This document shows, one piece after another, positions 4,416 through 34,375 of a stretch of 64,000 nt of DNA; within the stretch, counting starts at the first letter, position 1, and each line of letters begins with the position of its first letter. The stretch is taken from the NCBI GenBank assembly GCA_963711155.1, contig CAVQDB010000003.1, positions 97,358 to 161,357 on the forward strand. The letters run 5' to 3'. The position numbers and the translations under genes are program-made. The notes beneath the pieces are model-generated. The model was not told the DNA's origin and searched no databases. It saw only the letters and a program-made list of their open reading frames with translations. Source of the DNA: an uncultured Armatimonadetes bacterium (GTDB taxonomy: Bacteria; Armatimonadota; UBA5829).

Positions 4416-5391
4416 CTATTTGGGCTTCTTGCCCGCGCCTGGCTTCACATTCGGCGCCGGCATCGGATACTGCATCGGCGGAGGCGGGTTCTTGATCTGA
4501 TCCACCATATACTTGTACTGAGGCAGCTCGATCTTGATGTCGGACTTCTTCCTCTGTGCCTCGAGCTTCTTCTGGAAGTCGGTATCGGTCATGGTCTTCT
4601 GCAGCGCGGCAATGCCCTTGACCTCGGACTTGACCTTCTCGAAGCTCAGGTCGAGCTTGGGCTGGGTGCCCAGAACATTTAGAACCGCATACAGCGTACC
4701 GTACGGAGGCAGTTCCATGGTAAACGGCTTGCTTACCTTCCCCACCTTCAGCGGCTTGGCGGCGTCCCACAGGGCCGGCAACTTCCCGTTATCCTCGACG
4801 AAGGCCTTGGGAGTGCCTGTTACGGCAAACTCCTGGTCGGCATACTTTCCGACCGCCGCATCGAAGTCCATCCCGTTCTTGATCGCCTTTGCGGCGTCAT
4901 CGACCTTCTTCGAGGACGTGCTCAGCAGGACAGCCACCTGCTTGCGCGGCCCGTGCACGAAGCGAGGCTTGAGCTGGTTATACAAGGTCATCAGCTCGTC
5001 GTCCGTGAACTTATACATCTTTTCGCCGAGATTCATCCTGGCCTGCTGTTCGCGCAGGGTGCCCATGAAAGCAGCCTCACCGCCGGAATTCCGCACGCGG
5101 TCCTCATAGTTGCCATCGCGCTTGACAACCTCTATCTGCTTGTCGAGCTGCTCATCGGTTACCGGCACCTTCTCCTTCTCGGCCCAATTGAGCAGAACTT
5201 GCTGGTCGATGATCACCGGCAGGATCTGCCTGCCGAAGCCCATGCTCGAGGTACTCGCGGTACTGAGTTCCCGAGATCGGCTTTCCATCGACGGTCGCCA
5301 CCGTCTTTGGCAAGCCGGTTTCCTTGCCCCCACACCCCGCCAGCGCGAACGCCAGCATCGCAACCAGTATCAGGGCGGCTGTTCTCTTCAT
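4416..5391 (-). CDS. SurA/PpiD-like periplasmic chaperone lipoprotein (SurA N-domain type); frameshift near 5240
   Basis: The N-terminal ORF starts MKRTAALILVAMLAFALAGCGG, a lipobox. It continues in the 315-aa ORF, which resembles the SurA N-terminal chaperone domain. Confidence 0.5.
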
Positions 5392-5610: not shown

Positions 5611-5662
5611 GGAGTTGTGACACGCCACTGTTCACAGTGTTGTGATACAAGGGAGAAGTATA

Positions 5663-8482
5663 ATGCATTGCCGCATCGCCACTCGCGTGCTCACGCTGAC
5701 CGTGAGCGCATGCCTCTTTCTCACCGCTTTGCCCGCGTTCTCTGCAGTAGTATGCTACCTTGACGCCGGCAATTCGCCTTATCTGATGGACTTGCCGGCC
5801 ATCACATCGCCGGTCGCGGCGCTCGACGCCCTCGCGTCTCCGCCCGCCGGGTTTGGCTCAGCCATTCCGCCCGGCACGCACGTCGTGTCGTTCATCGCCG
5901 AGCAGGACTACACCGAGGTGGACTTCTCCCAGGCGATCCTTGCCAACGGAATGGGCGAGTCGCGCATATCGAACATCTTCGACCAAGTGCGCATGACTCT
6001 CGAGCAGTTTGGCCTTTCGCGCAGCATAAGAATGACCGCTCAAGGCACACCGCTCTACGAGTATCTGCCACCGGTGCAGCCCGTCGAGCCGAGTCCTGAG
6101 GCACAGGCGGAGACCCCGCCACAGCCGTCCACCACCGGACTGGCCGGCAGGAAGATCACGCTGTCGCCGGGACACGGCCAGCGCTGGGCCGGCAGCAGTT
6201 GGCTATATGAGCGCCCCGTCTACTGCTCTTTTCCCTGTGAGGACGACCATAACGATGAGATCGTTCGCTACCTCGATATCTACCTGCGCCAGGACGGCGC
6301 GACCACCAAGCTCTGCAGGTGTATCGACAAGAGCTACGGCAACTACTCCAACGGCAACGCGTGGTGGAGAATGTCGGCTCCATACTGGCTCAAGAACATG
6401 GGCTATCCCTGTTCGGTATACGGCAGCTTGACCGGCTGCACTCTCGGCTCCGGCGCAGACGAGACTGATGACGGTATTCGAGCACGGCCGCTGGCCTCCG
6501 ACTACGACAACTCCGATATCTACATTTCCAGCCATACTAACGGCAACGCAGGCAACTGCTACGGCACCGGCTGCGCCACCGGAACCGCGACATACTACGA
6601 TACGTGCGCCGAGCACGCCACCTGGGGCGCCATAAGCAAGACGCTGGCTCAAGACGTCGAGGCCGCTATCGTCAGCGCGATCAGGACGAAATACGCCGAC
6701 TCCTCCTGGCGCGACAGGGGCACCGCCAACTCAAACGGCGGCTTCGGCGAGATCCGCATACCGAACCGCGCCGCCATTCTCATCGAGTTTGCGTTCCACG
6801 ACAGTTGCGACGGCGACGCCGTCTATCTCAAGGACAACTTCTTCAGGTCTACGTGCACGTGGGCCATGTATAAGGGCGTCTGCGACTACTTTGGATCCAC
6901 GCCCACCTGGGACTACTACTCCTACGAGATCGTGAGCAACGACATACCGGACACCATGAACCGCAACGAGACCCGTACCGCCCACATCACGCTTCGCGAC
7001 CGAGGCGTGCTGTGGAACGAGGCCAGGCAGTTCCGTCTCGGCGCGGTCGGCGACTCCGATCCGTTCTCAGCCTCGACCCGCTACACAATCACCGGAGAAG
7101 TCGAGCCCAGCGCGACCTACACGTTCACGCTCACCCTTACGGCACCCAGCACGGTCGGCGCCTACACCACCGACTGGAGAATGCTTCGCGAAGGCGTCAC
7201 CTGGTTCGGGCCGACCATCTCGAAGACCGTGACGGTAGTCGATCCGAACCCCGACGACGAGCCGCCCACCAAGCCCACCAACCTGACCGCAACGCTCGTG
7301 GGCCAGAGCCAGATCGATCTGGCATGGACGGCATCCACCGACAACCAGGGCGTCATGGGCTACAAGATATACCGCAACGGGTCGTTCCGCACGACCACCA
7401 CATCGACATCCTATTCCGATACAGGGCTGAGCTCCGGCGACACGTTCACCTATCAGGTATCGGCCTATGATTCGCACGACAACGAGTCCGAGCTATCCGA
7501 TCCGGCATCGGCCACCACGCCCGTCATCACGAACATCATCATAGACAACACCAGCGCCTCATTCGTCGGCAGTTGGTCGACCGGAACCGACGGGACCACC
7601 AAGTATGGCGCCGACTACCGCTATGGCGCCTGCTCTCCGAGCACCGGCCGCATCGCGAGGTGGGTCCCGGACGTGGACGTGCCCGGCATGTATCTGGTCT
7701 ATGTGTGGTACGCCAGCGACACCAATAGATCGACCAGAGCCCCGTACACCGTCGTCTACAGCGGCGGATCGACTATCGTGCAGGTGGACCAGACCGCCAA
7801 CGGCGGAAAGTGGGTCACGCTTGGCATGTTCCCGCTTATCGCGGGCATCAACGGCTACGTTCAGCTCTCCAATGGCACCGGCGAATCGGCCTCGACCTAT
7901 GTGGTCGCCGATGCGGCCAGATTCTTCTACGTGAGGCCGTTTGACACGACCGCGCCGACCATCAACTCGGTTCTCACCACGCCGAGACTCGTCTCGGGCG
8001 GTGTGCCGATTTCGGTCAGTGTTTCGGCCACTGACGACGTCGGAGTAACCGGCGTTACGGCCTGTGGTACCACTCTTTCGCTGACGGGCAGTTCGTGGAC
8101 CGGCAGCATCAGCACCGATCCGGCACTCGGAGAGCACACCGTCACGGTGACCGCCGCCGATGCCGCCGGCAACGAGGTGACAAACAGCGATCAGACCTAT
8201 GTGACCGCGCCGGTCTACGGAATCCCGAACGCCGGCCTGACCACCGGTGACGCGGCGGAGTACGCGGCCAGCAAGTTCCTGTTCAAGACCTGGGGGTCGG
8301 TCACTTTCGTGGACGCCAGTCATTTCGACATCAACGACGGCTCGCCAACGTCCGTGAGGGTCTATTGCCCCAGCCACAATCTCACCTCGGGCAGATTTGT
8401 GACGGTGATCGGTGTCTGGAACACGACGACCAGCCCGGCGCAGCTCGAGGTCCAACCGAGTCAGGTGACCGTAGTGTATTAG
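5663..8482 (+). CDS. secreted multidomain N-acetylmuramoyl-L-alanine amidase, paralog 1 (SP / GerMN-like / Amidase_3 / NBR1-like / FN3 / golvesin-C-like / Ig-like / OB-like)
   Basis: Signal peptide. The GerMN-like pattern is PVAALDALASPPAG..GSAIPPGT. Amidase_3 motifs are ITLSPGHG, SSHTNG, GTATYY and IPNRAAILIEFAFHDS, in a Cys-rich context. The FN3 segment is KPTNLTATLVGQSQIDLAWTAS. The golvesin-like segment is ASFVGSWSTGT..YGADYRYG. Confidence 0.75.
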   Translation: MHCRIATRVLTLTVSACLFLTALPAFSAVVCYLDAGNSPYLMDLPAITSPVAALDALASPPAGFGSAIPPGTHVVSFIAEQDYTEVDFSQAILANGMGESRISNIFDQVRMTLEQFGLSRSIRMTAQGTPLYEYLPPVQPVEPSPEAQAETPPQPSTTGLAGRKITLSPGHGQRWAGSSWLYERPVYCSFPCEDDHNDEIVRYLDIYLRQDGATTKLCRCIDKSYGNYSNGNAWWRMSAPYWLKNMGYPCSVYGSLTGCTLGSGADETDDGIRARPLASDYDNSDIYISSHTNGNAGNCYGTGCATGTATYYDTCAEHATWGAISKTLAQDVEAAIVSAIRTKYADSSWRDRGTANSNGGFGEIRIPNRAAILIEFAFHDSCDGDAVYLKDNFFRSTCTWAMYKGVCDYFGSTPTWDYYSYEIVSNDIPDTMNRNETRTAHITLRDRGVLWNEARQFRLGAVGDSDPFSASTRYTITGEVEPSATYTFTLTLTAPSTVGAYTTDWRMLREGVTWFGPTISKTVTVVDPNPDDEPPTKPTNLTATLVGQSQIDLAWTASTDNQGVMGYKIYRNGSFRTTTTSTSYSDTGLSSGDTFTYQVSAYDSHDNESELSDPASATTPVITNIIIDNTSASFVGSWSTGTDGTTKYGADYRYGACSPSTGRIARWVPDVDVPGMYLVYVWYASDTNRSTRAPYTVVYSGGSTIVQVDQTANGGKWVTLGMFPLIAGINGYVQLSNGTGESASTYVVADAARFFYVRPFDTTAPTINSVLTTPRLVSGGVPISVSVSATDDVGVTGVTACGTTLSLTGSSWTGSISTDPALGEHTVTVTAADAAGNEVTNSDQTYVTAPVYGIPNAGLTTGDAAEYAASKFLFKTWGSVTFVDASHFDINDGSPTSVRVYCPSHNLTSGRFVTVIGVWNTTTSPAQLEVQPSQVTVVY

Positions 8483-8526: not shown

Positions 8527-8572
8527 TACTCGTCTGCAGGTCATGGTATACTGAACTAGGAGGTTGATCAAT

Positions 8573-11400
8573 ATGCACTACAGCCTACTGGATCGCGGTC
8601 TCATTCTGGCCTTCATTCTGGCCTGTATTCTCGCAGTAGCGGGTCCATCGTCGGCGGCCGTAGTATGCTACCTGGACGCCAACAACTCACCTTATCTTAT
8701 GGACATCCCGAGCATAACGTCGCCGGTCGAGGCGCTGGACGCTCTCGCCTCCCCGCCGGCCGGGTATAGCTCCGCCATTCCGCCGGGCACGCACGTCGTA
8801 TCCTTCATTGCCGAACAGGACTACACCGCCGTAGACTTCTCGCAGGCAATCGTTGCGCTCGGAATGGATGAAGTTCGAATATCGAACATCTTCGATCAGG
8901 TGCGCAGCACGCTCGAGCAGTTCAGTCTTTCGCCGAACATAAGGACAACCGCGCAGGGCACGGCGCTCTACGAGTACTTGCCGCCGGTACAGCCCATCGA
9001 GCCGAATCCGCAGGCGCAGGAGCAGACCCCGCCGCAGCCGTCCACCACCGGACTGGCCGGCAAGAAGATCACGCTGTCGCCCGGACACGGCCAGGTATGG
9101 CTGGGCAGCTACTGGGGCTACGAACGCCCCGTTACCTGCGGGCTCGCCTGCGAGGACGATCACAACGACGAGATCGTGCGATTCCTCAACATCTACCTGC
9201 AGCAGGACGGCGCCACAACCAAGCTCTGCAGATGCATCGACAAGAGCTACGGCAACTACGCCAACGGCAACGCCTGGTGGAGAATGTCCGCGCCGTACTG
9301 GCTCAAGAGCCTGGGCTATCCGTGCTCCGTCTACGCCAACTCCACCGGCGACTGCAATCTTGGCTCCGGCGCCAGCGAAACCAGCGACGGCATCCGGTCC
9401 CGGCCGCTGGCCTCGGACTACGACAACTCCGACATCTACATTTCTCATCATACCAACGCTCTTTCCGGCTACTGCACAGGCTCCGGCTGTCCGAACGGCA
9501 CGATTACCTACTATGACACCTCCAGCGAGCACGCCACCTGGGGCGCCATAAGCAAGACCCTGGCCCAGAAGGTCCAGTCCGCGGTCATCAGTGCGATCAA
9601 GACCAAGTACTCGGATTCGTCGTGGCGCGACAGGGGCACGGCTGACTCAGACGGCGACTATGGCGAGATTCGCATTCCCAACCGCGCCGCCATCCTCATA
9701 GAGCTGGCCTTCCACGATACCTGTGACTGGGATGCCGAGTATCTCAAGGACAACTTCTTCAGGTCTACATGCATGTGGGGCATATACAAGGGCGTCTGCG
9801 ACTACTTCGGCACGACGCCCACCTACGACTACTACTCCTACGAGATCGTGAGCAATGACATACCCGACACGATGAACCGCAACGAGACTTATACCTGTCA
9901 CATCACGCTTCGCAACCGAGGCGTGCTCTGGTCGGAGGCCAGGCAGTTCCGCCTGGGCGCGGTCGGCGACTCCGACCCGTTCACGACCGCGACGCGCTGC
10001 ACCATCACCGGAGAAGTCGATCCCAGCGCGACCTATACGTTCACGCTCACCCTCAAGGCACCCAACACGGTCGGCGCCTACACGACCGACTGGAGAATGC
10101 TTCGCGAGGGCGTTTCCTGGTTCGGCCCGACCGTTTCCAAAACCGTTCTCCGTGGTCGATCCAACGCCCGACGACGAGCCGCCCACCAAGCCCACCAACC
10201 TGACCGCAACGCTCGTGGGCCAGAGCCGAGATCAACCTGGCCTGGACCGCTTCCACCGACAACCAGGGCGTCATGGGCTACAAGATATACCGCAACGGGT
10301 CGTTCCGCACGACCACCACGGTGACATCGTATTCCGACACCGGGCTGAGTTCCGGTGACACGTTCACCTATCAGGTATCGGCCTATGATTCGCACGATAA
10401 CGAATCCGAGCTGTCCGATCCGGCATCGGCCACTACGCCGGTCGTCACGAACATCATCATAGACAACACCAGCGCCTCATTCATCGGCAGTTGGTCGACC
10501 GGAACGGACGGGACCACCAAGTATGGCGCCGACTACCGCTACGGCCCCTGTTCGCCGAGCACCGGCCGCATCGCGAGGTGGATCCCGGACGTGGACGTGC
10601 CCGGTATGTATCTGGTCTATGTTTGGTACGCGAGCGACACCAATAGATCGACCAAGGCTCCATTCACCATTGTCTACGACGGTGGATCGACGACCGTGGA
10701 GGTGAACCAGACCGCCAACGGCGGAAAGTGGGACCCGATTGGCATTTTCCCGTTCATAGCGGGCATCCACGGTTACGTTCAGCTCTCCAATGGCACAGGC
10801 GAATCGGCCTCGACGTATGTGGTTGCCGATGCGGCCAGATTCTTCTACGTGAGGCCGATCGATACGGCCGCGCCGACCATCAACTCGGTTGTCGCGACGC
10901 CGCGCCTGGTCTCCGGCGGTGTGCCGATTGCGGTCAGTGTCTCGGCGACTGACGACGTCGGAGTAACCGGCGTTACGGCCTGCGGCGCCAGTCTCTCGCT
11001 GACGGGCAGTTCGTGGACCGGCAGCATCAGCACCGATCCCGCGCTCGGAGAGCATGTCGTGACGGTGACCGCCACCGACGCCGCGGGCAACGAGGCGACG
11101 AACACCGATGAGACCTACGTGACCGCCCCGGTCTACGGAATCCCGAACGCCGGCCTGACCACCGGTGACGCGGCGGAGTACGCGGCCAGCAAGTTCCTGT
11201 TCAAGACCTGGGGGTCGGTCACTTTCGTGGACGCCAGCAATTTCGACATCAACGACGGCTCGCCAACGTCCGTAAGGGTCTTCTGCCCCAGCCACAACCT
11301 GACCACGGGCAGATTTGTAACGGTGATCGGTGTCTGGAACACGACCACCAGCCCGGCGCGGCTCGAGGTCCAGCCGAGTCAGATATCTATCGTGTATTGA
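8573..11400 (+). CDS. multidomain amidase paralog 2, same architecture; frameshifted between about 10140 and 10275
   Basis: ORFs 8564..10324 and 10273..11400 are collinear with paralog 1 at about 85-90% identity. The frame changes inside the NBR1/FN3 junction. Confidence 0.65.
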
Positions 11401-11537: not shown

Positions 11538-14360
11538 ATGCGTTGCTGCGTCTGCTGCCGGCTTCTGACCGCTCTAATCGTCCTCATGTCCGTTCTTATA
11601 ACCTCGGGGCCGTCGTTCTCGGCTATCGTGGTCTACCTCGACGACGGCGGCTCGCCCCACGGCGTTAGTCTGCCCGGGATAGTCTCGCCCGTCGCGGCGC
11701 TCGACGCGCTCGCGTCGCCGCCGGCCGGGCTGAAGTCCGCGATACCGCCTGGTACGCGCGTGCTGTCGTTTGCGGCCGGCCAGGAGTATACCGACGTTGA
11801 CTTCTCGCAGACCATCCTCTCGCTGGAAATGGACGACGCGCGTCTCGAAAACATCTCCGAGCAGGTGCGCGGCACTCTGGAGGGAATGGGACTGACGGCG
11901 AGCGTAAGGATGACCGTACAAAACGCGCCGCTCTGCACCTACCTTCCGCCAGATCCTCACGTTGCGCCGCGCGCCAGGGCCCAGAGCGAGCCACTGCCAT
12001 CCGTGGGAGCGCTCTCGGGCAAGACGATTTCGCTCTCGCCCGGCCACGGTCTGCGCTGGAACGGCGGTTCCTGGGTCTACGATCGCCCTGTAACGTGCGG
12101 ACTGGCGCGCGAGGACGATCACAACATCGAGATCACGCGCTATCTGGACATCTATCTCCGGCAGGAGGGCGCCACCACGATCAACTACAGGTGCCTGGAC
12201 AAGAGCGCCGGGACCTACGCCCCGGCCAACACGCCCTGGTGGCAGATGGGCGGATCCTACTGGCTCCAGCACATCGGCTATCCCTGCTCGGTATACGCCT
12301 GCGATTCCGGTGACTGTGAGCTTGCCGCCGGAGACGACGAAGCAACCGACAACATCCGCTCCCGCCCCGTCGCCTCCGACTACGACGATACCGATGTCCA
12401 CATAGCCATGCATACCAACGCCTTGTCCGGCGACTGCTACGGCACCGGCTGTCCAAACGGCACGGAGACGTTCTACGACAATGGCGCCGAGCACTCAGAT
12501 TACGGCCCCATAAGCCGCACCCTCGCGCAGGATATCCAGACCCAGCTTATAGACGTCATAAGAACGAAGTACGCGGACTCCTCCTGGCGCGACAGGGGCG
12601 CGAAGGACGCCAACGGCGACTACGCCGAGACACGCATCCCGCACCGGCCCTGCGCACTCGTGGAACTCGCATTCCACGACAGTTGCGACAGGGACGCCGC
12701 CTACCTCAAGGACAACTGCTTCAGGTCGATGGTAACCTGGGCGATCTACAAGGGGATCTGCAACTTCTTCGGCGTCACGCCCACCTGGGACCTCTACTCG
12801 TACGAGATAACCAGCGACGACATTCCCGACGTCATGGACAAGTTCGAGACCAGGGATGTACACGTCACGCTGCACAACCGCGGTTGTCTCTGGAACGAGG
12901 CGCAGAGGTTCCGTCTGGGGGCCGTAGACGAGAGCGACCCGTTCACCACTCTGACCAGGGTGACGATCCCGACGGAGGTCGAACCCGACCAGGACCACAC
13001 GTTCACGATACCCTTCACGGCGCCCGGCCAGGTGGGCACCTATCACACGGACTGGCGGATGGTGCGCGACTACGGCGTCTGGTTCGGCCCGACCGTCTCC
13101 AAGGATGTACAGGTGCTCGACCTCACTCCGGACACGGAGGCGCCGTCAGTTCCGGCCGATCTGTCCGCAAACGTTGTCAGCATCAATCAGATCGACCTGT
13201 CCTGGTCGGCGTCCACTGACAACATCGGCGTTGTGGGCTACAAGGTCTACCGCAACGGCGTTCTTCTCACCACCACCACGGCCACGTCCCACTCCGACAC
13301 GACGGCCACTTCCGGCAGCGTCTACGCATACCAGGTGTCGGCTTACGATCTCCACGGCAACGAATCGCCCAAATGCGACGCTGTCGTGGTCGGAACGTCG
13401 CAGGTAACCGACTTCATCATCGACAATACCGCCGCTCTGCTCGTCGGCTCATGGTCCACCGGAACCGCCGCCGGCCAATACGGCGACAACTACCGCTACG
13501 GCACCTCTGCCTTCAGCGCGGGCCGCATCGCCAGGTGGATCCCCGATATCGATGTCCCCGGTGTCTACTCGGTGTCCATCTGGTATCCGCAGGCCGCGAA
13601 CCAGTCCACTATCTCTCCGTTCACGGTCATCTACGACGGCGGATCGACCGTCGTACACGTCGATCAGACGACCGGAGGAGGCGCGTGGCTGGAGATCGGC
13701 CAGTTCCCGTTCGCCGTCGGCAGAACCGGATATCTCCAGCTAACCAACGCTACCGGCGAACCCGGCACGACCTATGTGGCCGCGGACGCGGCGCGCTTCA
13801 AGCTGCTGATCCCGACGGACACGACTCCGCCGGCCATCAACTCGGTCACGGTTTCCCCCACCCTGGCCGCCGCGGGCCGTCCGGTGGACGTGTCCGTTTC
13901 GGTAACGGACAACGTCGCGGTCACGGGCGTAACGGCCAACGGCGCCGCGCTGGCGCTCAGGGCAATCGACACCTGGGGCGGCACGCTCACGGCTGATCCC
14001 GAACTTGGCGAGCATACGGTCGCCGTCGTGGCCCACGATTCGGCGAGCAATGAGAGCACGGACGCGTCCGCGGGCTATCGGACGGCGCCTGTCTTCGGAC
14101 TGAACAACTCGGCGCTGCTCGTGGGCGGGGCCGTGCGGGAAGGCGCGGCGAGATACCTGTTCAAGACGTGGGGCTATACGACGGTCGTGGACGCCGATAA
14201 CTTCGAGGTTGCCGATGGGTCCATGACGCCCGTGAAGGTCCACTGTCCGGGCCACGGACTGACGACGATGAAGTTCGTTGCGGTGTTCGGCATCGCCAAC
14301 TTCGCGGCGACTCCGCTCCAACTCGAAGCGCAGCCCGGACAGGTTCAGGTGGTCTACTGA
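11538..14360 (+). CDS. multidomain amidase paralog 3, a more divergent copy, 940 aa, intact
   Basis: Same domain order. Amidase_3 motifs are ISLSPGHG, AMHTNA, GTETFYD and IPHRPCALVELAFHDS. It ends with the shared C-terminus ...LQLEAQPGQVQVVY. Confidence 0.75.
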   Translation: MRCCVCCRLLTALIVLMSVLITSGPSFSAIVVYLDDGGSPHGVSLPGIVSPVAALDALASPPAGLKSAIPPGTRVLSFAAGQEYTDVDFSQTILSLEMDDARLENISEQVRGTLEGMGLTASVRMTVQNAPLCTYLPPDPHVAPRARAQSEPLPSVGALSGKTISLSPGHGLRWNGGSWVYDRPVTCGLAREDDHNIEITRYLDIYLRQEGATTINYRCLDKSAGTYAPANTPWWQMGGSYWLQHIGYPCSVYACDSGDCELAAGDDEATDNIRSRPVASDYDDTDVHIAMHTNALSGDCYGTGCPNGTETFYDNGAEHSDYGPISRTLAQDIQTQLIDVIRTKYADSSWRDRGAKDANGDYAETRIPHRPCALVELAFHDSCDRDAAYLKDNCFRSMVTWAIYKGICNFFGVTPTWDLYSYEITSDDIPDVMDKFETRDVHVTLHNRGCLWNEAQRFRLGAVDESDPFTTLTRVTIPTEVEPDQDHTFTIPFTAPGQVGTYHTDWRMVRDYGVWFGPTVSKDVQVLDLTPDTEAPSVPADLSANVVSINQIDLSWSASTDNIGVVGYKVYRNGVLLTTTTATSHSDTTATSGSVYAYQVSAYDLHGNESPKCDAVVVGTSQVTDFIIDNTAALLVGSWSTGTAAGQYGDNYRYGTSAFSAGRIARWIPDIDVPGVYSVSIWYPQAANQSTISPFTVIYDGGSTVVHVDQTTGGGAWLEIGQFPFAVGRTGYLQLTNATGEPGTTYVAADAARFKLLIPTDTTPPAINSVTVSPTLAAAGRPVDVSVSVTDNVAVTGVTANGAALALRAIDTWGGTLTADPELGEHTVAVVAHDSASNESTDASAGYRTAPVFGLNNSALLVGGAVREGAARYLFKTWGYTTVVDADNFEVADGSMTPVKVHCPGHGLTTMKFVAVFGIANFAATPLQLEAQPGQVQVVY

Positions 14361-14379
14361 GCTCGTGCCTACGGGACCC

Positions 14380-14470
14380 GTTAGCCCTGAGTAGCCCCGT
14401 CCGCGCGCAGGCCGAGCTTATCGAAGGACGGGCCGTATCGAAGGGCGGTGGCCCCGTAGACCGTCCCCGG
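14380..14470. repeat. GTAG-type REP-like hairpin element between convergent genes
   Basis: gccctgagtagccccgtcc...ggacgggccgtatcgaagggcgg. It shares the CCTGAGTAG and GTATCGAAGGGCG cores with the loci at 23360, 26390-26530 and 33925-34375. Confidence 0.5.
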
Positions 14471-14489
14471 GCTGCCGGACACACACGGC

Positions 14490-17144
14490 TCAGTCGAACG
14501 GAGTGATCCACGCGGGCGCGGCGTCCAAACGCATCTGCGAGCCGTAGAGGCTCAGTATTCCGCGCACCCGCACGTACTGCCCGCTGGTCAGGCCGTGACC
14601 GTTCACGTACGTGTCGATCGGCTCGCCGGAACCGTCGTCGAGACGGAAATGCCCGGTGTCAACAACGGTCACCCTGCCACAGAGGGCAAACTGGTACTTC
14701 GACGCGCCCGCTATCGTAACCGCATCCCGTGCCGCCCGGTTCGTCACCGCCATGACGGTCGTTGTCGCGTAGCTGCCGCTGGAGTTGAGCGCTGTGTTGT
14801 CGAACACGTCCGTCGCCACGATACTGACTGCATGCGGCCCCATCTGGCTGCTGGCAGGCAGCGAACCGATCCACGTGGACCCCGCGCCCTTCGACAAGTC
14901 CGCGCCGTTCGCGGTCACCGACGCAACTCCCATATTGTCGCTGACCATCGCCAGAACACTCACGTTGTCGCCCGGAAGCGCCAGCTTGGTCGGAACGATC
15001 ACGACCGAGATGACCGGTGGCGTGATGTCGCCGTATAACTGCGAACTGGCCTTCGTCCAACCCGTCCATCCACCGCCGGTCTGCGACTTGCACCACAGAA
15101 AGCCGTCCGACTGAGGTATGAACACCTGCAGGGTCCCGTCCTCGTTGTGGCCGACGGTTACCCCGCCGGTGCTCGCTCCGCCGAACGATTCCCAGCCCGA
15201 GAAACCGCCGTCGGTGGACGTCTGATACTTGTGCCAGACCTGACCCGCGCTGTCGCAGTAGAACACGTCCTGGTTGTAGCCGACGCCCATGACGATCGTG
15301 CCCGGCCTGCGGCCCACAGCCGGATCGGAGGCAGCCGAGCCGCCCAGCGACGTCCAGCCGCTCCAACTCGTCCCGACAGTAAGCCCGTTCTGCTGATTGC
15401 GCCGGATCGTGCCGTCCGAGAACCTGCAGTAGACCTCCAGGCGGCCGTCGAAGCTCTTTCCCATCACCGGGTCGCCGCCGAGCGTGCCGCCAAGGCTCGA
15501 CCAACCAGACCAGGCGCCGTCGTTGAGCTGCCACTTGTGATAGAGCTGATTGTCCGTCCCGCGAACGAACACCTCCTCGCGGCCCTCCCAGTTGAGCGCG
15601 ACCACCGGATCGGCCGTGACGCTTCCCCCAAGCGACTCCCACGCCTGCCAACTGCCATCGTAGTTCTGCCATCTGTGCTGAATCGTCCCATCAGCCATCC
15701 GGCAGAACACGTCCAACCGTCCATCAGGGCTCTTGCCGACCGCGGGCCTGCCCGCGACCGCGCCGAGGCTCGTCCAGCCCGGCTGGCCACTGCCCCCCCA
15801 GCTCCCGTTCGGCCCATCGCTCTGTCCGGCGTAGTAGAGATCGCCATCCGTAAAGCGAGCAAAGACCGAGTCGCCGCCGCTGCGGTTAATGACCGCCACC
15901 GGATCGCAGGCCGCCGTGCCGCCCATATCGACCCAGTTCGGCCATGAGCCGTTCGCCGAAGCCTGCCTGGCACGATACACCTTGCCGGTCACGCCCTTTG
16001 CGAACATCTCCATCTGCCCGCTGCGGTTGATGGCAATCGGATCGCGGGACTTATATGGGAAGTAGGGAAAGCGCCAGTAGACGTTGTTCGGAATGCACGG
16101 GATCGTCGTTCCGCCGTGCCCCAGCCACACATTCGCGATCTCGTTCTTGTCGTATATGACGTGATCCCACGTGCTGGTTGAGCCGGCGGGGTCATTGCAA
16201 ATGTAATTGCCGTCGGAGGTGATCCCCACGACGAGAACAAGGTGACCGGAAGTGGATGAGATCGGCGAATGGGTCAGTTGGCCGGCGCTGTAGGCCATTC
16301 CGAACTCGACCGGACAGCCCTGCGCGATGAGATCGCGCAGCGGCTGCTGGCCGTTCGACCGGGAGTAGTATGACTTGAATCCATACTTTGCCGCCTCTTG
16401 CGCGATGAACGGCCAGTTGCCGTACATATCGTTGTAGCTGTCGTACTCTTCGGTAACGACATACTCGGTGGACAGGAACGCGCCGCAGTAGGCCATCGCC
16501 ATCGACATGGACGTCGGACCGCAGATGCAGCAGGGATCGACCGTTGACCAGTTCTGCGATCTGAACGGCACGGCCAGCGAGGCCGTATACCCCGGATTGG
16601 GCAGCGGAACGTAGGGGACCGGCGTGCTGGTGTCAGCGTAGCAGACCGACATGAGCCTGAGCGTGGGCGTGACGCCGACCGTGTTGGTATAGAGCGTCAC
16701 CCGATATTCGACGCGCGAGTGCAGCGACGGCAGCATGAGCGTATCGTCGTCGATTCCGTTCGACCTGCTGCCCTTGACGCGAGAGATGCCCCCCGGAATC
16801 GTCCCCTGGCGCGCTATCTCGAACCACGACGTCCACGATCCGTTGTACGCGCGCACCTCGGTGCGAAAGCCCGTCCCGGGCGGCATATCGACATTCCACG
16901 AGCAAACCACGTTGTTGACCCCGAACGGCGCATTGGTCCCGTAGAAACCCGCCGTGCCGCTGGTAGCCGAGTTCGCCAGCCGGACTCCCGTGCCGGAGAC
17001 ATAGATCGTGTTGGAGTCGAGCTGGATCGGTGACAACTGCTCCTGCAGGTCGAAGACGGTGGTGGAGGTCTTGTATGAAGACTGTGCGAACGCGGCAGGC
17101 GCGGCAACAGCCGCGACAGCCAGTATAATGCATACTGCTCTCAT
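14490..17144 (-). CDS. secreted peptidase_C39-like (C39_2/BtrH-like) protein with a 7-blade PLL/tectonin-like beta-propeller lectin region and the shared C-terminal Ig+OB-like module
   Basis: Signal peptide MRAVCIILAVAAVAAPAAFA. The peptidase motif is DPCCICGPTSMSMAMAYCG...GHLVLVVG..NDP. Seven W..LGG....DP.V blades follow. The C-terminus aligns with the amidase paralogs. Confidence 0.65.
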   Translation of the reverse strand: MRAVCIILAVAAVAAPAAFAQSSYKTSTTVFDLQEQLSPIQLDSNTIYVSGTGVRLANSATSGTAGFYGTNAPFGVNNVVCSWNVDMPPGTGFRTEVRAYNGSWTSWFEIARQGTIPGGISRVKGSRSNGIDDDTLMLPSLHSRVEYRVTLYTNTVGVTPTLRLMSVCYADTSTPVPYVPLPNPGYTASLAVPFRSQNWSTVDPCCICGPTSMSMAMAYCGAFLSTEYVVTEEYDSYNDMYGNWPFIAQEAAKYGFKSYYSRSNGQQPLRDLIAQGCPVEFGMAYSAGQLTHSPISSTSGHLVLVVGITSDGNYICNDPAGSTSTWDHVIYDKNEIANVWLGHGGTTIPCIPNNVYWRFPYFPYKSRDPIAINRSGQMEMFAKGVTGKVYRARQASANGSWPNWVDMGGTAACDPVAVINRSGGDSVFARFTDGDLYYAGQSDGPNGSWGGSGQPGWTSLGAVAGRPAVGKSPDGRLDVFCRMADGTIQHRWQNYDGSWQAWESLGGSVTADPVVALNWEGREEVFVRGTDNQLYHKWQLNDGAWSGWSSLGGTLGGDPVMGKSFDGRLEVYCRFSDGTIRRNQQNGLTVGTSWSGWTSLGGSAASDPAVGRRPGTIVMGVGYNQDVFYCDSAGQVWHKYQTSTDGGFSGWESFGGASTGGVTVGHNEDGTLQVFIPQSDGFLWCKSQTGGGWTGWTKASSQLYGDITPPVISVVIVPTKLALPGDNVSVLAMVSDNMGVASVTANGADLSKGAGSTWIGSLPASSQMGPHAVSIVATDVFDNTALNSSGSYATTTVMAVTNRAARDAVTIAGASKYQFALCGRVTVVDTGHFRLDDGSGEPIDTYVNGHGLTSGQYVRVRGILSLYGSQMRLDAAPAWITPFD

Positions 17145-17323
17145 CGATACTACCTTCTGCGCCTTCTGCCTGCCCGCACGGCGCCAACACTTGCATTCTA
17201 CCACATTATCCACGGTCTGTGGGGGCAGGTCGTGGGATACCGCCCTGAGCCTGCCGGGTCTCCGGCACTCGCGCGGCCCGACCAGGTATTCTTACCAGTT
17301 TACCAGAGGTTTCCCCGATAGCC

Positions 17324-17456: not shown

Positions 17457-18833
17457 ATGACCCTTAGGAAACCTCTTCTTGTCGTCTCCCGTTCTGGTGA
17501 TGGCGGCTTTCGTCGTCGGGTTGGCTGTGCCGGCCTCGGCGAACGTCTACGCGTCGTCGCTGCAAGTGACCGGAGACAAGTCCTTCAGCTACACCCTCAA
17601 TGAGAATGCCAGCACGAACGTGCAGATGCAGGTGTGGCAGGTCGGCGGCGGAATGGTCTATTCGCAGGACCTCGGCGCGCAGACCAAGGGCGTCCAGAAC
17701 TGGACTTGGAGCGGCGCTGGCGCTGTCGCCGGTAACAGCTACAAGGTCAAGATCGTAGCTACCGGCACAAACCAGACGCGGTTTGCCAAGATCAGCACCG
17801 ACAGCAACACTGCGATGTGCTATTGGCTGCCGACTGGAGTCTCTGTCAACAAGGACCAGAACAGCGCCGAGTTTGGCAAGATCTTCATCTCCAACGGCCA
17901 GGCTGGTACCGACCACCTCGGCACGTATACCGGCGATGGCTTCTTCAGAGTAAACGCCGACTATACGGCCGACATCTTCGGCAACGGCGGCCGGGGCTGG
18001 GGCGGCACCACTGAGACGCACAACTTGAGGAGTACCGTCGGACCTGACGGCCACCTCTACTTCTGCGACGCGTGGGACGACACTGTGTGGGAGTTGAACG
18101 ATGACTTGTCGACCGTCACTCAGTTGATCGACCTGAGCAACAAGAGCAACGGCTCCACTCAGTGGTGTTCAGCCATCGTTGTTGAGGGAACACAGGCAGA
18201 GGGCAATCGCAAGATCTACGTCTGTGACAGCAACTACGATGACACAACCCACAAAGGTCTGATGATGTACGACCTCGGCGCAAACGCCACGGCTACGCAC
18301 AACGACCATGGCACGCAATACATCGGCCCGGGTTACTTCAACTACTTCCCGGTGGACGTCGACCGTGACGCCGCCGGCAACTGGTACATGAACAACTACC
18401 GGTCTTCCACTACCCAGGCTCCGTTCTTGATGAAGTTCAACGACAGCGCGTCGCTGCCCATCAACACCGCTGCTTGGGAAGCTCCGAAGAGCTACACCTA
18501 TTGCGATTCAGTCGCCGTTGACGACAAGGACGGATGGGTAGCCGGGATAACTTACACCAACGGTATGACCTACGTCTTCAACAAGGAGACCGGTACCTCG
18601 TCGGCAGCTTCGACAGCGGCAATCACGCAGACGACATCACGTTCGACGCAGCCGGCAACATCCTTGTCTGCGACAACTACAATGAGTACGTAAGGGTGTT
18701 CTCGCCGGGCGGAACCAACGAGTTCACCACCACGTCCTACTTCGCGTTCGACGTGGTTCCTGAGCCGTCCTCGCTGCTGGCCCTGCTGATTGGCCTGCCT
18801 GGACTGCTCATCTTCAAGCGACGCAGGCACTAG
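17457..18833 (+). CDS. PEP-CTERM-anchored secreted protein, paralog 1; two apparent 1-bp frameshifts (near 17490 and near 18600)
   Basis: The ATG at 17457 gives MTLRKPLL.., collinear with the paralog-2 N-terminus. The C-terminal ORF ends VVPEPSSLLALLIGLPGLLIFKRRRH. Confidence 0.55.
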
Positions 18834-19075: not shown

Positions 19076-20473
19076 ATGACTCTAAACAAACCTCTGTTCG
19101 TCGTCTCCGTCTTGGCGATGGCGGCATTCGTCGTCGGGCTGGCAGTGCCGGCTTCGGCGAACGTATATGCCTCCGGCCTCACGGTGACGGGTGACAAGTC
19201 CATCAGCTACATACTCAACGAGAATGCCGATACAGGCATTCAGATGCAGGTGTGGCAGGTCGGCGGCGGTATGGTCTATTCGCAGGACCTCGGCGCCTTG
19301 GACAAGGGCACCCACAACTGGACATGGAACGGCGCTGGCGGCGTCGCGGGCAACAGCTACAGCATCAAGATCGTAGCGTCGTCCGCGGGCCACACCGGCT
19401 GGACGAAGATCAGCGACGACAGCACCTTGTGCCAGTTCGAGAACCCGCGGGGGTTAGCTGTCAACACCTACCAGAACACTGCCAACTTCGGCAAGATCTA
19501 CGTGTCGAACGTCCGAACCAGCCCAACCGCTACGGGAAGAGCAATGCAGAACGGAACCTACGCCCTGAACGCCGATTGCACAGACGACGGCTTCCACACG
19601 GGCGGAGTGGCGTGGACCAACACTAGCACTACCACTGCCGCGCGGCACGGCTGCGTTGGACCGGACGGCCACCTCTATCTGGCGGACTACAGCAATGACC
19701 TGGCCTACGAGTTCAGCGAGGACATGTCAACCGCCACGCTGCTGATCGACGGCACCAACAAGACCGCCAACCAGTGGGTGCGCGACATCTGTGTGACCGG
19801 AACCGGCGCAGATCGCAAGATCTATCTGGCTAACCCCTACTGGGTATCAGGTGGAGATCTTTCCAGGACCGGCATCGTCGGATACGATCTCGGCACGAAC
19901 ACTAGGGTTACACCCGGCGACACCGGCACGGAGATCATAAACTTCGCTGACAACGGCCTGCTGTATCCCTATGATGTCAAGCGGGACAGTGCCGGAGACT
20001 GGTATTCCTCCCAGTACCGGGCGACTGCGGGTACTGGAGCGCCGCTCATCAAGTGGCAGGACGGCTCGGCGCCGATCGGTCCAGGGAACATCATGTGGCA
20101 GGCCGACCAAGCCTACACCTACAACAATGGCTTCGACATCTACGAGCCGGGAAACCTCATAGCGTACTGCAACTTCTACTCCGGCGACGGTAGCGTGTAT
20201 ATCTTCGACATGGCTACCGGCGCGTACGTCGATCAGTTCGCCACGGGCACTGAGACTTACAAGACGCCCAGGGACATCGCGTTCGACGCGGCCGGCAACA
20301 TCGTGACCGTGGACAACTACACTGAGCGCATGCGCATCTGGTCGCCGGGTGGAGAAAACAGCTTCACTACCACGTCCTACTTCGCGTTCGACGTCGTTCC
20401 CGAGCCGTCCTCGATGCTGGCCTTGCTGGCCGGTATTCCCGGACTGCTCATCTTCAAGCGACGCAGGCACTAG
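19076..20473 (+). CDS. PEP-CTERM-anchored secreted protein, paralog 2 (465 aa)
   Basis: Signal peptide. The C-terminus VVPEPSSMLALLAGIPGLLIFKRRRH is the PEP-CTERM exosortase sorting signal. Confidence 0.7.
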   Translation: MTLNKPLFVVSVLAMAAFVVGLAVPASANVYASGLTVTGDKSISYILNENADTGIQMQVWQVGGGMVYSQDLGALDKGTHNWTWNGAGGVAGNSYSIKIVASSAGHTGWTKISDDSTLCQFENPRGLAVNTYQNTANFGKIYVSNVRTSPTATGRAMQNGTYALNADCTDDGFHTGGVAWTNTSTTTAARHGCVGPDGHLYLADYSNDLAYEFSEDMSTATLLIDGTNKTANQWVRDICVTGTGADRKIYLANPYWVSGGDLSRTGIVGYDLGTNTRVTPGDTGTEIINFADNGLLYPYDVKRDSAGDWYSSQYRATAGTGAPLIKWQDGSAPIGPGNIMWQADQAYTYNNGFDIYEPGNLIAYCNFYSGDGSVYIFDMATGAYVDQFATGTETYKTPRDIAFDAAGNIVTVDNYTERMRIWSPGGENSFTTTSYFAFDVVPEPSSMLALLAGIPGLLIFKRRRH

Positions 20474-20561: not shown

Positions 20562-21998
20562 ATGCAGACAACCGAGCAACTATACAGCCAGCGCCTCGCG
20601 CGCTACGTCACGGCGATGCGCAACGGCAAGCCGGACATGATACCGATCCGGCCGTTTGTCGCCGAGTTTGTCGCCTCCTACGCCGGCTACACCTGCCAGG
20701 AGGTCACCCACGACTACCACAAGGCATTCGCCGCCGCCCGCAAGTGCGCCTGCGAGTTCGACTGGGACGCCGTGGTCGCGAACATGGTCTACGTCTGGAC
20801 CGGCCTGACCCAGGCGCTCGGACTGCGCTACTACGCCGTGCCGGGCGTCGATATCGGCCCCGATGTCGGCTTCCAATACATCGAGCCGACCGAGGACGAG
20901 GCGTTCATGAAAGCCGACGAGTACGACCAGCTCATCGACGACCCGACCGCATTCCTCTACACCGTCTGGCTCCCGCGCGTGTCGCGCGAAGTGAGCGCCA
21001 TCGGCGGGCCGGCGACTTATCGCAGCCACGTCGCGCTCACCAAGTCGGCGATGGCGATGATGCAATACTTCTACGACTTCGGCCCCCAGGTCGAGGCGCT
21101 GCGCACCGAATGCGGCACCGTGTCGGCCATCGCGGGCATCCTCAAGGCTCCGTTCGACATCCTCGCCGACAAGCTGCGCGGCTACATCGGCCTGACAATG
21201 GACATGATCGAGCAGCCCGACAAGGTTCTGGCCGCGTGCGAGGCGCTGATGCCGCATCTCTATCACGTCGCCGCGACGACCGCCGATCCGGCCTGCACGG
21301 TCCCAGTCGGCTATTGGATGCACCGCGGATGCGTGCCGTTCGTCTCGAAAGGCCAGTTCGAGTCGCACTACTGGCCCACGGTCAAACCGATCATCACGCA
21401 GCTCTGGCGCAACGGCCACCAGACCCTTATGTACGCGGAGGGCGACTGGAACGCCCATCTATCGAGCTTCGCCGAGCTGCCGGACGCCAGCATCGTCTAT
21501 CACGTGGACCGCGGCGACATCTTCGAGGTTCACCGTGCAATCGGCGGTCGGTTCTGCCTCAGCGGCGGCATTCCGAACGTGCTGCTGTCTCACGGCACGC
21601 CTGACGACGTCCGCGCCTGCGCGAAGAAGGTGATCGACGGTGTCGCCCGCGACGGCGGCTACATCCTCGACGCGAGCGCGATCATGCAGAACGACACGAG
21701 GGCCGACAACCTCCGCGCCCTCACCGACTTCGCCCGCGACTACGGCGTCTACCCATCCTCGGCCACACCGCTCCCTTGTCATGCTGAACTTGTTTCAGCA
21801 TCCGCGCGGCCACGTGCGTGTCATGCTGAACTTGTTTCAGCATCCAGTTCGTGTGAGCCGGGGACGTGCATCCCCTGGTCTGTCAAGCGCTCCGAACTCG
21901 GCAACATCCCCGGTGACGCCGACCTCGTCGAGCGCATCTGGCGCGAAGCTGACTCGCTGGGCAACACGTTCATCTGGCAGATTCTGGTCTCATTCTGA
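20562..21998 (+). CDS. uroporphyrinogen-decarboxylase (URO-D/MtaA-like) family protein; the C-terminal about 70 aa read through two palindromic repeats
   Basis: URO-D-family-like sequence runs to ...FARDYGVYP. After that the ORF runs across two GTCATGCTGAACTTGTTTCAGCATCC copies, translated CHAELVSAS twice. Confidence 0.5.
   Translation: MQTTEQLYSQRLARYVTAMRNGKPDMIPIRPFVAEFVASYAGYTCQEVTHDYHKAFAAARKCACEFDWDAVVANMVYVWTGLTQALGLRYYAVPGVDIGPDVGFQYIEPTEDEAFMKADEYDQLIDDPTAFLYTVWLPRVSREVSAIGGPATYRSHVALTKSAMAMMQYFYDFGPQVEALRTECGTVSAIAGILKAPFDILADKLRGYIGLTMDMIEQPDKVLAACEALMPHLYHVAATTADPACTVPVGYWMHRGCVPFVSKGQFESHYWPTVKPIITQLWRNGHQTLMYAEGDWNAHLSSFAELPDASIVYHVDRGDIFEVHRAIGGRFCLSGGIPNVLLSHGTPDDVRACAKKVIDGVARDGGYILDASAIMQNDTRADNLRALTDFARDYGVYPSSATPLPCHAELVSASARPRACHAELVSASSSCEPGTCIPWSVKRSELGNIPGDADLVERIWREADSLGNTFIWQILVSF
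21786..21852. repeat. two tandem copies of the palindromic element GTCATGCTGAACTTGTTTCAGCATCC
   Basis: Other copies lie at 3077-3102, 23408-23432 (degenerate), 48921-48945, 61509-61533, 61545-61568 and 63822-63846, in both orientations. Several sit at intra-operon gene junctions. Confidence 0.85.
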
Positions 21999-33099: not shown

Positions 33100-33940
33100 A
33101 TGAGACACTTGATCGGAATAGCCACTTGGAACTACGGCGAGGGCACGCTCGCCCAGCGCATCGACCGCTTCACGGAGATGGGCTACAACGCGGTCAGCTT
33201 GAGCGCCGCGGACGCCCGCGCGATGTGCAAGGGCGAGACCCCCGAGGTCGAGGCCGCGATCCGCCGGCACAACCTCCCCATCACCATCCACACCGGCTTT
33301 GCGCCCCAGCGCGAACCATTGCCGCACGACGCGGTCCTCGCCGATTTCGCGCTCTTCGCCCAATGGCACAAGCGCACCGGCGCGCTGCTGAGCATCAACT
33401 ACGACGCCGCCAAGATCGAGAAGCCGGGCGGCGGGATGGAGTTCCAGTCCGCGGCGATGGTCCGCGTGCTCGGCGATATGCTCGCCATGTCCCGGGGGGG
33501 CCGACTTCAGCGTCGGCGTCGAGGACTGGCCGCGGGACGCGGAGCAGGCGGCACTCATCGATCATCTTCGCCGCTACGAGCACTACGGCGTGCTCATCGA
33601 CCTCGGCCACCTCAACATACGGATACCCAAACCGGCCGGCGAGAGCACCTTCTCCATCGACGCGGCCCGCGAGTATCTCGACCGCTTCGACCTGCCCGTC
33701 AACGAGCTTCACGTCCACAATAACGACGGCAGGGCCGACCTGCACGCCCCACCGACCACAGGCACCGCCGATATGGCCGCCATAGCCAGGCTGCTGATCG
33801 AGAAAGGCGTCAACTGCGTATCGACCATCGAGATCGTGCCGCGCTGGTGCGGCCTCACCGAACAGCAGGGACTCGACGCCGCCCGCGAAGCCCTCGACTT
33901 CTGGCACAACGCATTCGTGGATCCGCGAAGTCCTGAGTAG
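33100..33940 (+). CDS. sugar phosphate isomerase/epimerase (xylose-isomerase-like TIM barrel); frameshift near 33500
   Basis: Two collinear ORFs, 33100..33723 and 33590..33940. The stop codon lies inside the first CCTGAGTAG repeat unit. Confidence 0.5.
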
Positions 33941-34375
33941 CGGAGCGTATCGAAGGAAGTAGCGCAGCGTATCGAAGGGCGAAACCCGCGAAGTCCTGAG
34001 TAGCGCAGCGTATCGAAGGAAGTAGCGCAGCGTATCGAAGGACGAAACCCGCGAAGTCCTGAGTAGCGCAGCGTATCGAAGGACGAAACCCGCGAAGTCC
34101 TGAGTAGCGCAGCGTATCGAAGGGCGAAACCCGCGAAGTCCTGAGTAGCGCAGCGTATCGAAGGGCGAAACCCGCGAAGTCCTGAGTAGCGCAGCGTATC
34201 GAAGGGCGAAACCCGCGAAGTCCTGAGTAGCGCAGCGTATCGAAGGGCGAAACCCGCGAAGTCCTGAGTAGCGCAGCGTATCGAAGGGCGAAACCCGCGA
34301 AGTCCTGAGTAGCGCAGCGTATCGAAGGGCGAAACCCGCGAAGTCCTGAGTAGCGCAGCGTATCGAAGGACGTCA
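33925..34375. repeat. 41-bp tandem array of about 10.5 copies: CCCGCGAAGTCCTGAGTAGCGCAGCGTATCGAAGG(G/A)CGAAA
   Basis: Exact 41-bp period measured at 34089, 34130 and 34171. The units are near-identical with no spacers. The unit is a GTAG-type REP-like sequence. Confidence 0.85.

Follow-up and report, generated by a model that had tools for sequence, protein, structure and literature searches.

Why would three amidase paralogs and a C39-type peptidase/lectin protein, encoded next to each other, share one C-terminal end? This question is raised by a 64-kb stretch of DNA from an uncultured Armatimonadetes bacterium (contig CAVQDB010000003.1; "the window" below means this whole stretch), in which a sequence-only reading had picked out an Ig (immunoglobulin)-like plus OB (oligonucleotide/oligosaccharide-binding)-fold-like tail on the four secreted proteins and had suggested that it might serve them all in targeting, anchoring or recognition for secretion. 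It is well known for secreted proteins to carry a non-catalytic module at one end, and Armatimonadota are a widespread, little-studied diderm phylum; to our knowledge, almost nothing is known about how its members display or release proteins. As described below, the Ig+OB tail is, judging from alignments and a predicted structure, a conserved, folded, non-catalytic two-domain module common to the four proteins, for which we tentatively favor a role in retention at the cell envelope or surface.

A tail common to four secreted proteins

A listing of open reading frames (ORFs) combined with Pfam scans of the window revealed four large genes between 5.6 and 17.2 kb: the amidase genes A1, A2 and A3 and, convergent with A3, gene C. 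These genes and the halves of their tails are given in map order, ig54 and ct54 being the hidden Markov models (HMMs) of the Ig and OB halves.

5642..8482, forward strand: gene A1, 946 aa (ORF and Pfam)
7937..8212, forward strand: A1 tail, Ig-like half, 92 aa (ig54 E 1.8e-31; weak Big_13 match, 23.0 bits, cutoff 27)
8213..8479, forward strand: A1 tail, OB-fold half, 89 aa, to the stop codon (ct54 E 8.2e-31; without a Pfam family)
8564..11400, forward strand: gene A2, broken tandem copy of A1, read as ORFs 8564-10324 and 10273-11400
10855..11130, forward strand: A2 tail, Ig-like half (ig54 E 1.6e-31)
11131..11397, forward strand: A2 tail, OB-fold half (ct54 E 5e-30)
11538..14360, forward strand: gene A3, 940 aa, architecture as in A1 (ORF and Pfam)
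13815..14090, forward strand: A3 tail, Ig-like half, model residues 1-92 (predicted beta-sandwich, AlphaFold2 pLDDT ~97; ig54 E 1.1e-34)
14091..14357, forward strand: A3 tail, OB-fold half, model residues 93-181 (AlphaFold2; Foldseek matches to OB folds; ct54 E 2.6e-29)
14490..17144, reverse strand: gene C, 884 aa from an ATG, the ORF reaching a GTG at 17213 (ORF, Pfam and NCBIfam)
14493..14756, reverse strand: C tail, OB-fold half, to the stop codon (ct54 E 4.4e-29; weak RMI2, tRNA_anti-codon and DUF5818 matches)
14757..15032, reverse strand: C tail, Ig-like half (ig54 E 8.6e-30)

The four tails can be aligned over ~178-181 aa (the sequence-only reading had put the shared stretch at roughly 190 aa), with 45 invariant columns distributed along the whole length, and every motif quoted in that reading (D.TPP.I.SV, VTA.G, W.G, G.H.V, A.D..N, F...G.VT.VD..F...DGS, GHGLT.G.FV.V.G) is present. 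BLASTP with composition adjustment gave E=5e-30 and 35% identity for the tails of A3 and C, and E=7e-25 and 37% for those of A1 and C; identities in these alignments are 35-39% overall, and the A2 tail is 89.5% identical to that of A1. This similarity is one of homology, not of low complexity or composition. When each tail was run against the window with tblastn, these four were the only copies recovered, with no further match below E=0.3. The interval first proposed for the module, 13850-17213, covers the A3 tail and gene C but omits the tails at 7937-8479 and 10855-11397.

The predicted A1 protein consists of a signal peptide, Germane (GerMN), Amidase_3, N_BRCA1_IG, fn3 and Golvesin_C (115.9 bits) domains and the tail; the Amidase_3 (PF01520) scores of the A1, A2 and A3 heads are 39.5, 44.7 and 54.4 bits (cutoff 27). 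The product of gene C is predicted to combine a signal peptide, a Peptidase_C39_2 domain (PF13529; 56.7 bits, residues 214-343, cutoff 24), a DUF346/beta-propeller lectin and the tail. A3 is identical to the database protein P0154, and the gene C product is 100% identical to P0002 (P and L numbers are our handles for proteins and for metagenome or genome loci). A2 has 86% nucleotide identity to A1 and carries two frameshifts near 10150-10270, so that reading through needs two +1 frame changes within ~100 nt; it is present in the protein database only as a 583-aa fragment (P0185). The metagenome locus L090 is syntenic with the window and contains orthologues of A1 (77%), A3 (79%) and, in convergent orientation, C (83%). 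Since L090 lacks a counterpart of A2, this copy looks like a recent tandem duplicate, decaying or carrying assembly errors, and is either a pseudogene or a product of misassembly. Orthologues agree at 71-80% in the tail and at 78-86% in the heads, a similar degree of conservation. Thus, all three amidase tails claimed at the outset are there, but the middle carrier is frameshifted, and the description of the carriers as unrelated applies in the window to only two distinct heads, the three paralogous amidases and C; it becomes strong once the head data of the whole family are added (see below).

Predicted structure of the tail

The A3 tail was modelled with AlphaFold2, as the sequence-only reading had suggested. 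With the four window sequences only the Ig half was resolved, the OB half having a predicted local distance difference test score (pLDDT) <50. The final run, with an alignment of 54 homologues, reached a pLDDT of 97.1 and a predicted TM score (pTM) of 0.86. In this model, residues 1-92 would form an Ig-like beta-sandwich, in agreement with the fold originally ascribed to the first half, and residues 93-181 would begin with two short helices and continue with five strands that make up an OB-type barrel. The high pTM (0.86) indicates that the two halves would hold a fixed mutual arrangement, as a rigid pair. The whole Ig+OB unit had no match in a Foldseek search against the PDB (TM at most 0.40). 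Searched separately, the barrel gave OB folds as best matches, led by RPA14 of P. abyssi (8aaj_C; 93 columns, TM 0.63, root-mean-square deviation 2.2 A) and Stn1 (3kf6_A), and the sandwich matched the ColG PKD domain, SiiE BIg and alpha2-macroglobulin MG domains. The modelled second half has the five-stranded closed or semi-closed barrel, usually with a capping helix, that marks the OB-fold structural class. An OB-only profile searched independently against PDB sequences had the same RPA14 chain as its top match, via the motif GRV.KVD..F.LDDG.G; with a Foldseek E of 1.6e-2 and a sequence E of 0.15, this likeness is weak.

The OB half showed sub-threshold Pfam matches (E~0.1) to RMI2, tRNA_anti-codon and DUF5818, and the gathering thresholds were not reached in tests against tRNA_anti-codon (PF01336), RMI2 (PF16100), DUF5818 and DUF5666 (12.3 bits vs 27, 12.7 vs 29.4, 13.0 vs 27). 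Across 12 relatives the weak matches were again to OB families (RMI2, in 4 of the 12, tRNA_anti-codon, DUF5818 and DUF5666; best E-value 0.0016), while BOF (PF04076) and tRNA_anti-like (PF12869) had no hmmscan match in the tails (E<=10) or the relatives (E<=5). The initial description of the final part as an OB fold of tRNA_anti/BOF type is therefore supported by AlphaFold2, Foldseek and the weak Pfam matches to OB families as regards the fold, but not as regards BOF. For the Ig half, the only Pfam matches were sub-threshold ones to Big_13 and Big_7, the Big_13 (PF19077) threshold of 27 bits being missed in A1 (23.0) and A3 (15.2), with no match in C; a distant relationship to Big_13 is likely from these scores.

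NCBIfam gave no match on the tails (E<=1), the T9SS and PEP-CTERM models matched neither the tails nor the whole proteins (E<=0.01 for the latter), and PDB sequence profiles yielded nothing significant against the tails. The tails had no SLH, CWB2 or dockerin match in Pfam and no similarity to carbohydrate-binding modules (CBMs) or lectins in Pfam or the PDB, and literature searches found no description of the module. Neither Pfam (a copy with models to 2025) nor NCBIfam (release 20.0, June 2026) has a model matching the OB half, for which a new family could thus be set up. Its conserved positions include W, H/Y, R and D, and its C-terminal residues are beta-strand ends such as ..VQVVY and ..ITPFD.

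Family size, position and heads

Other proteins ending in the module, which the sequence-only reading had proposed to look for, were sought by comparing a profile exhaustively with 1.84 billion cluster representatives, after which the profile was split into its Ig and OB halves. The search matched 1266 protein clusters at E<=1e-3, 364 at E<=1e-10 and 84 at E<=1e-30. Among the best 150 of the 1266, 95 contain a pair of exactly one Ig directly followed by one OB, and the rest have the Ig half alone, often in long tandem arrays. Of these 95 pairs, 87 end no more than 12 aa from the C-terminus and seven come directly after the signal peptide; in the remaining one, a short protein of 226 aa, it ends 20 aa before the C-terminus, and a mid-protein position in long proteins was seen in none of the 95.

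The Pfam heads in 54 tail-bearing proteins include LVIVD (7), FG-GAP (7), RCC1 (6), Golvesin_C (6), Amidase_3 (4), Peptidase_C39_2 (3), S8 (2), GHL10 (2) and others, with SASA and NosD among further heads seen; most tail-bearing proteins start with a signal-peptide-like N-terminus. On these architectures, the tail is a mobile unit joined to the C-terminus of many unrelated proteins predicted to be Sec-exported.

The N-terminal cases form one orthologous secreted family of ~1060 aa (P0037, P0039, P0040, P0044, P0060, P0069 and P0098; 31-52% identity over the full length), in which the module sits directly between the signal peptide and a ~860-aa stretch of PEGA/CarboxypepD_reg-like repeats, and the C-terminus carries no anchor. 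Its loci (L092-L095; the gene at L092:8544-11726) come from activated-sludge metagenomes, and the gene context there gave no clue and is unrelated to tail genes. The protein may act together with the tailed enzymes as a scaffold, a fibre or something resembling an S-layer.

When metagenomes were searched with a degenerate DNA pattern built on the OB motif, 77 loci came back, each of which encodes an OB domain. Among the full-length matches of the window type (class 1 below), 26 are preceded by a window-type Ig domain and 26 by another kind of domain, such as one that looks IPT-like on inspection; what stays constant is therefore the OB domain. All 66 class-1 OB domains in metagenome and genome loci end <=15 aa from the stop codon. 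Tail genes are often clustered, L050, L052, L077 and L025 holding two each. In a scan of a genome collection with patterns derived from the Ig half, the full module was found in only two metagenome-assembled genomes (MAGs), both of Armatimonadota: L001, with a C39_2-ChW-tail protein, and L002, with a GerMN-amidase-tail protein; ANME archaea and other organisms have relatives with the Ig half alone. Armatimonadota MAGs are so far the sole named sources of the module.

A secreted family of ~350-367 aa (L028:1740-2840, L048, L033, L079) combines an unannotated ~240-aa domain with the OB tail and lacks the Ig half; it shows conserved synteny beside an N_methyl/DUF1559 prepilin-like gene in at least four loci.

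A second tail class and exchange of tails on one amidase core

A search with the whole A3 protein returned 120 amidase-core homologues (P0154-P0270), whose C-termini were sorted by type. The constant core is GerMN-Amidase_3-N_BRCA1_IG, and the C-terminal end varies by lineage as follows.

OB tail of the window type (class 1): 19 of 120, no named sources
OB tail, divergent (class 2): 24 of 120, Armatimonadetes (P0203, P0209)
FYRLR-type end (..FYRLRY): 21 of 120, named sources Verrucomicrobiota
Dockerin-like DxDxDVD..C..G tail: 15 of 120, named sources Phycisphaerae (Dockerin_1 match weak)
Ending at Golvesin_C: 11 of 120, no named sources
Ending at an fn3-like domain: 8 of 120, Armatimonadetes (P0179)
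Unclassified or truncated: 22 of 120, mixed, with Verrucomicrobiota (P0242) and Phycisphaerae (P0251)

The class-2 OB domain has the motif ..NNIGLLV..G.iT...F.yvDDGS...DGSG.GirV...vvTGIs...R.D.DV.., with a longer beta2-beta3 insert than class 1, and is homologous to the window OB domain (hhalign probability 96.4%, E 1.2e-9). It too is without a Pfam model. Examples are found among P0190-P0264 (P0193, P0203, P0209) and at L002:1808-4405(-), L015, L046 and L096:6001-9849, and class 2 accounts for the 26 partial OB matches in the metagenome loci. In the loci examined, 28 of 33 class-2 domains end <=15 aa from the stop codon, and three are not terminal. Both classes occur together in single genome fragments (L002, L025, L044). 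Judged by sequence, the tail can be exchanged for other terminal modules, as this enzyme core shows in other phyla; with its OB, dockerin-like or other tails, the amidase core clearly exemplifies how modules with a presumed role in localisation are swapped from lineage to lineage.

Possible roles of the tail

The reading that we tentatively favor, by analogy with known wall-anchor families and at a rough probability of 0.45, is that the tail is a lineage-specific envelope/surface retention module acting through ligand binding. The acidic Ig-like beta-sandwich would serve as a spacer presenting the ~88-aa OB domain at the very end of the polypeptide; after Sec export, this domain would bind one common envelope or surface ligand, be it a glycan or another protein. 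A variety of enzymes and beta-propeller proteins (among them peptidoglycan amidases, the C39-like peptidase/lectin, S8 proteases and GHL10 hydrolases) would thereby be kept at one place, as by SLH or CWB2 domains. Retention is favored because the module is found at either end of proteins, a finding easier to reconcile with a binding module than with a signal for export at the C-terminus, because the head repertoire resembles that of families sharing a wall anchor, and because amidase homologues from elsewhere have dockerin-like modules in the place of the tail. In the Cwp (CWB2) proteins of C. difficile and in SLH families, one wall anchor is common to varied heads, a repertoire paralleling Amidase_3, cysteine peptidase and GHL10 here.

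Several observations weigh against this assignment. No ligand, receptor or partner gene was identified in the window and the loci examined, and a basic-charge signature sought in the OB domain was not found (median pI 6.0, near neutral). The near-absolute C-terminal position (66/66) would be expected of a sorting signal sooner than of a binding module; modules of the latter kind are also found inside proteins. The structurally closest proteins, RPA14 and Stn1, have OB folds that engage other proteins or nucleic acids and do not bind glycans. Finally, the host looks diderm because the window holds a gene for a YadA-anchor trimeric autotransporter (35967-38171, with internal tandem repeats of periods 87, 144 and 261 nt reaching ~38715) and one for a SurA-like chaperone (4416-5363); Armatimonadetes have been placed among diderm Terrabacteria with OmpM homologues (10.1101/2021.05.31.446380). 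An apparently diderm host leaves the crossing of the outer membrane by tailed proteins unexplained.

That crossing step is where a different, though doubtful, interpretation begins, namely that proteins are sorted or secreted by means of the OB tail, a folded C-terminal signal resembling that of the type IX secretion system (T9SS) and read by a putative outer-membrane translocon or processing enzyme, which might remove the tail or use it for covalent attachment. Carriers that mostly look Sec-exported would need such a step in a diderm-looking host, the position is strictly terminal (87/95 pairs <=12 aa from the end, 66/66 domains <=15 aa from the stop), the many unrelated heads recall T9SS or PEP-CTERM cargo, and the two tail classes coexist in one genome fragment (L002, L025, L044). 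The ~1060-aa family, with the module after the signal peptide and ~860 aa behind it, and the three non-terminal class-2 domains speak against it. So does the lack of candidate machinery beside the tail genes in the window, L090 and L092-L096; the window contains no sortase, exosortase or dedicated secretion gene, and so not the co-occurring sortase- or secretion-like gene that the sequence-only reading had thought worth looking for. The tail does not belong to the T9SS C-terminal domains (TIGR04183), there being no model match, an OB barrel in place of the T9SS sandwich and an N-terminal location in one family, nor to PEP-CTERM (TIGR02595), as the tails end in a beta-strand and match no such model. 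It is conceivable, though unlikely, that class-1 and class-2 OB tails mark the cargo of an undescribed Armatimonadota sorting or attachment system with its own receptor or processing machinery, the OB domain being the recognition element; if true, this system would be comparable in scope to T9SS C-terminal domains or PEP-CTERM/exosortase.

About equally unlikely is a substrate- or target-binding module of CBM or lectin kind, which would direct the enzymes to an external polymer or to other cells and not to the own envelope. OB folds include oligosaccharide binders, the OB half has its conserved W, H/Y, R and D positions, and glycan-binding domains are already part of these proteins (Golvesin_C and the beta-propeller lectin in the window, ChW in L001); moreover, the amidase and C39-peptidase cluster conserved in L090 could be a lytic set against foreign cell walls. 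On the other hand, one ligand specificity is unlikely to suit RCC1, FG-GAP and LVIVD propellers, S8 proteases, amidases and esterases alike, CBMs are commonly internal or repeated whereas the OB tail is single and terminal, and proteins that already have other binding domains, with a tail lacking CBM or lectin similarity, do not argue for a further one.

Still less probable is a dockerin-like protein-protein docking module, with OB tails pairing with the N-terminal module of the PEGA-rich ~1060-aa protein, or with each other, to build a surface scaffold. The nearest relatives (RPA14, Stn1, RMI2) act by OB-OB heteromerisation, a single conserved family has the module at the opposite end, and Phycisphaerae amidase homologues carry dockerin-like tails at the same position; but the similarity to RPA14 is weak, as stated above, and the scaffold candidate has one module, no array of receptor modules and a genomic context unrelated to tail genes. 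The remaining notion, chance resemblance or Thr/Gly/Val-rich low complexity with no common fold, has practically nothing to commend it beyond sequences rich in T, V, A, G and S and is refuted by the composition-corrected BLASTP E-value (5e-30), HMM E-values of ~1e-29 per half, 364 profile-search clusters at E<=1e-10 and the AlphaFold2 model (pLDDT 97), which dispose of both objections foreseen in the sequence-only reading, low-complexity Thr/Gly similarity and the lack of a shared fold.

Taken together, the common localisation role originally proposed fits the terminal position, the signal peptides, the diverse heads and the tail swapping; no partner gene for it was found. One tail recurring on hundreds of secreted proteins would give a sequence handle for predicting the surface proteome of Armatimonadota. 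It also opens a route to the receptor or machinery by phylogenetic profiling and may provide a portable tag for surface display.

Other features of the window

Two paralogous FlgD_ig plus NHL-type proteins are encoded next to the tail cluster, at 17479-18693 and 19076-20473. The latter, 2 kb from the cluster, ends in a PEP-CTERM signal (TIGR02595, 26.4 bits vs 16); the former is without it, has a Ser/Thr-rich end and may be truncated. An intergenic array at 33923-34369 comprises 8.5 tandem copies of the 41-nt unit AGTAGCGCAGCGTATCGAAGGGCGAAACCCGCGAAGTCCTG (99% identity), flanked by related 63-nt and 22-nt periodicity; it has no spacers and no Rfam match, and a CRISPR-like nature was rejected for want of spacers. 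An exact 27-nt repeat, TGTCATGCTGAACTTGTTTCAGCATCC, occurs twice (21777-21803 and 21819-21845, 42 nt apart) inside the 3' end of a URO-D-like ORF (20562-21998); by inspection, each copy has its own short inverted repeat, ATGCTGAA..TTCAGCAT, and resembles a small palindromic repeat element. Scans of the window for Rfam families and tRNAs yielded nothing.

Comparison with known systems

Among OB folds, the tail OB shares with RPA14, Stn1, RMI2 and tRNA_anti-codon (PF01336) a five-stranded barrel and a capping N-terminal helix, and its beta1-beta2-beta3 motif G[RK]V..vD...F.LDDG.G aligns with P. abyssi RPA14. However, it falls far below the family thresholds (12 bits vs 27) and, unlike RPA14-type folds, is predicted to be extracytoplasmic, on signal-peptide proteins, fused to an Ig domain and at the extreme C-terminus; nucleic-acid binding is not indicated. 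The tail Ig resembles Big_13 and PKD-like bacterial Ig domains in being a predicted beta-sandwich with a D-T-x-P-P start and TDN.GV and A.D.AGN motifs, and its type forms tandem arrays elsewhere, e.g. 10 copies in P0001 and seven in the Methanosarcina locus L006; it differs in being single-copy, rigidly paired with the OB domain in the model (pTM 0.86) and below the Pfam cutoff.

With T9SS C-terminal domains and PEP-CTERM the tail has in common that it lies at the very C-terminus of varied cargo exported by way of Sec in a diderm host. It differs in being an OB barrel and not a seven-strand sandwich or a transmembrane helix, in occurring also N-terminally and in the cognate machinery not being seen near tail genes in the window and the loci examined. 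The Pfam and NCBIfam releases searched do not cover an OB fold in the role of a terminal module; the family is large, comprising hundreds of clusters in two classes. A further parallel is with SLH, CWB2 (C. difficile Cwp) and dockerins. The tail has no sequence or fold relationship to them, and the likeness is architectural only: a single non-catalytic terminal module, at either terminus, on many secreted proteins with unrelated heads. With dockerin-like modules it extends to an exchange with the OB tail on homologous amidases of another phylum.

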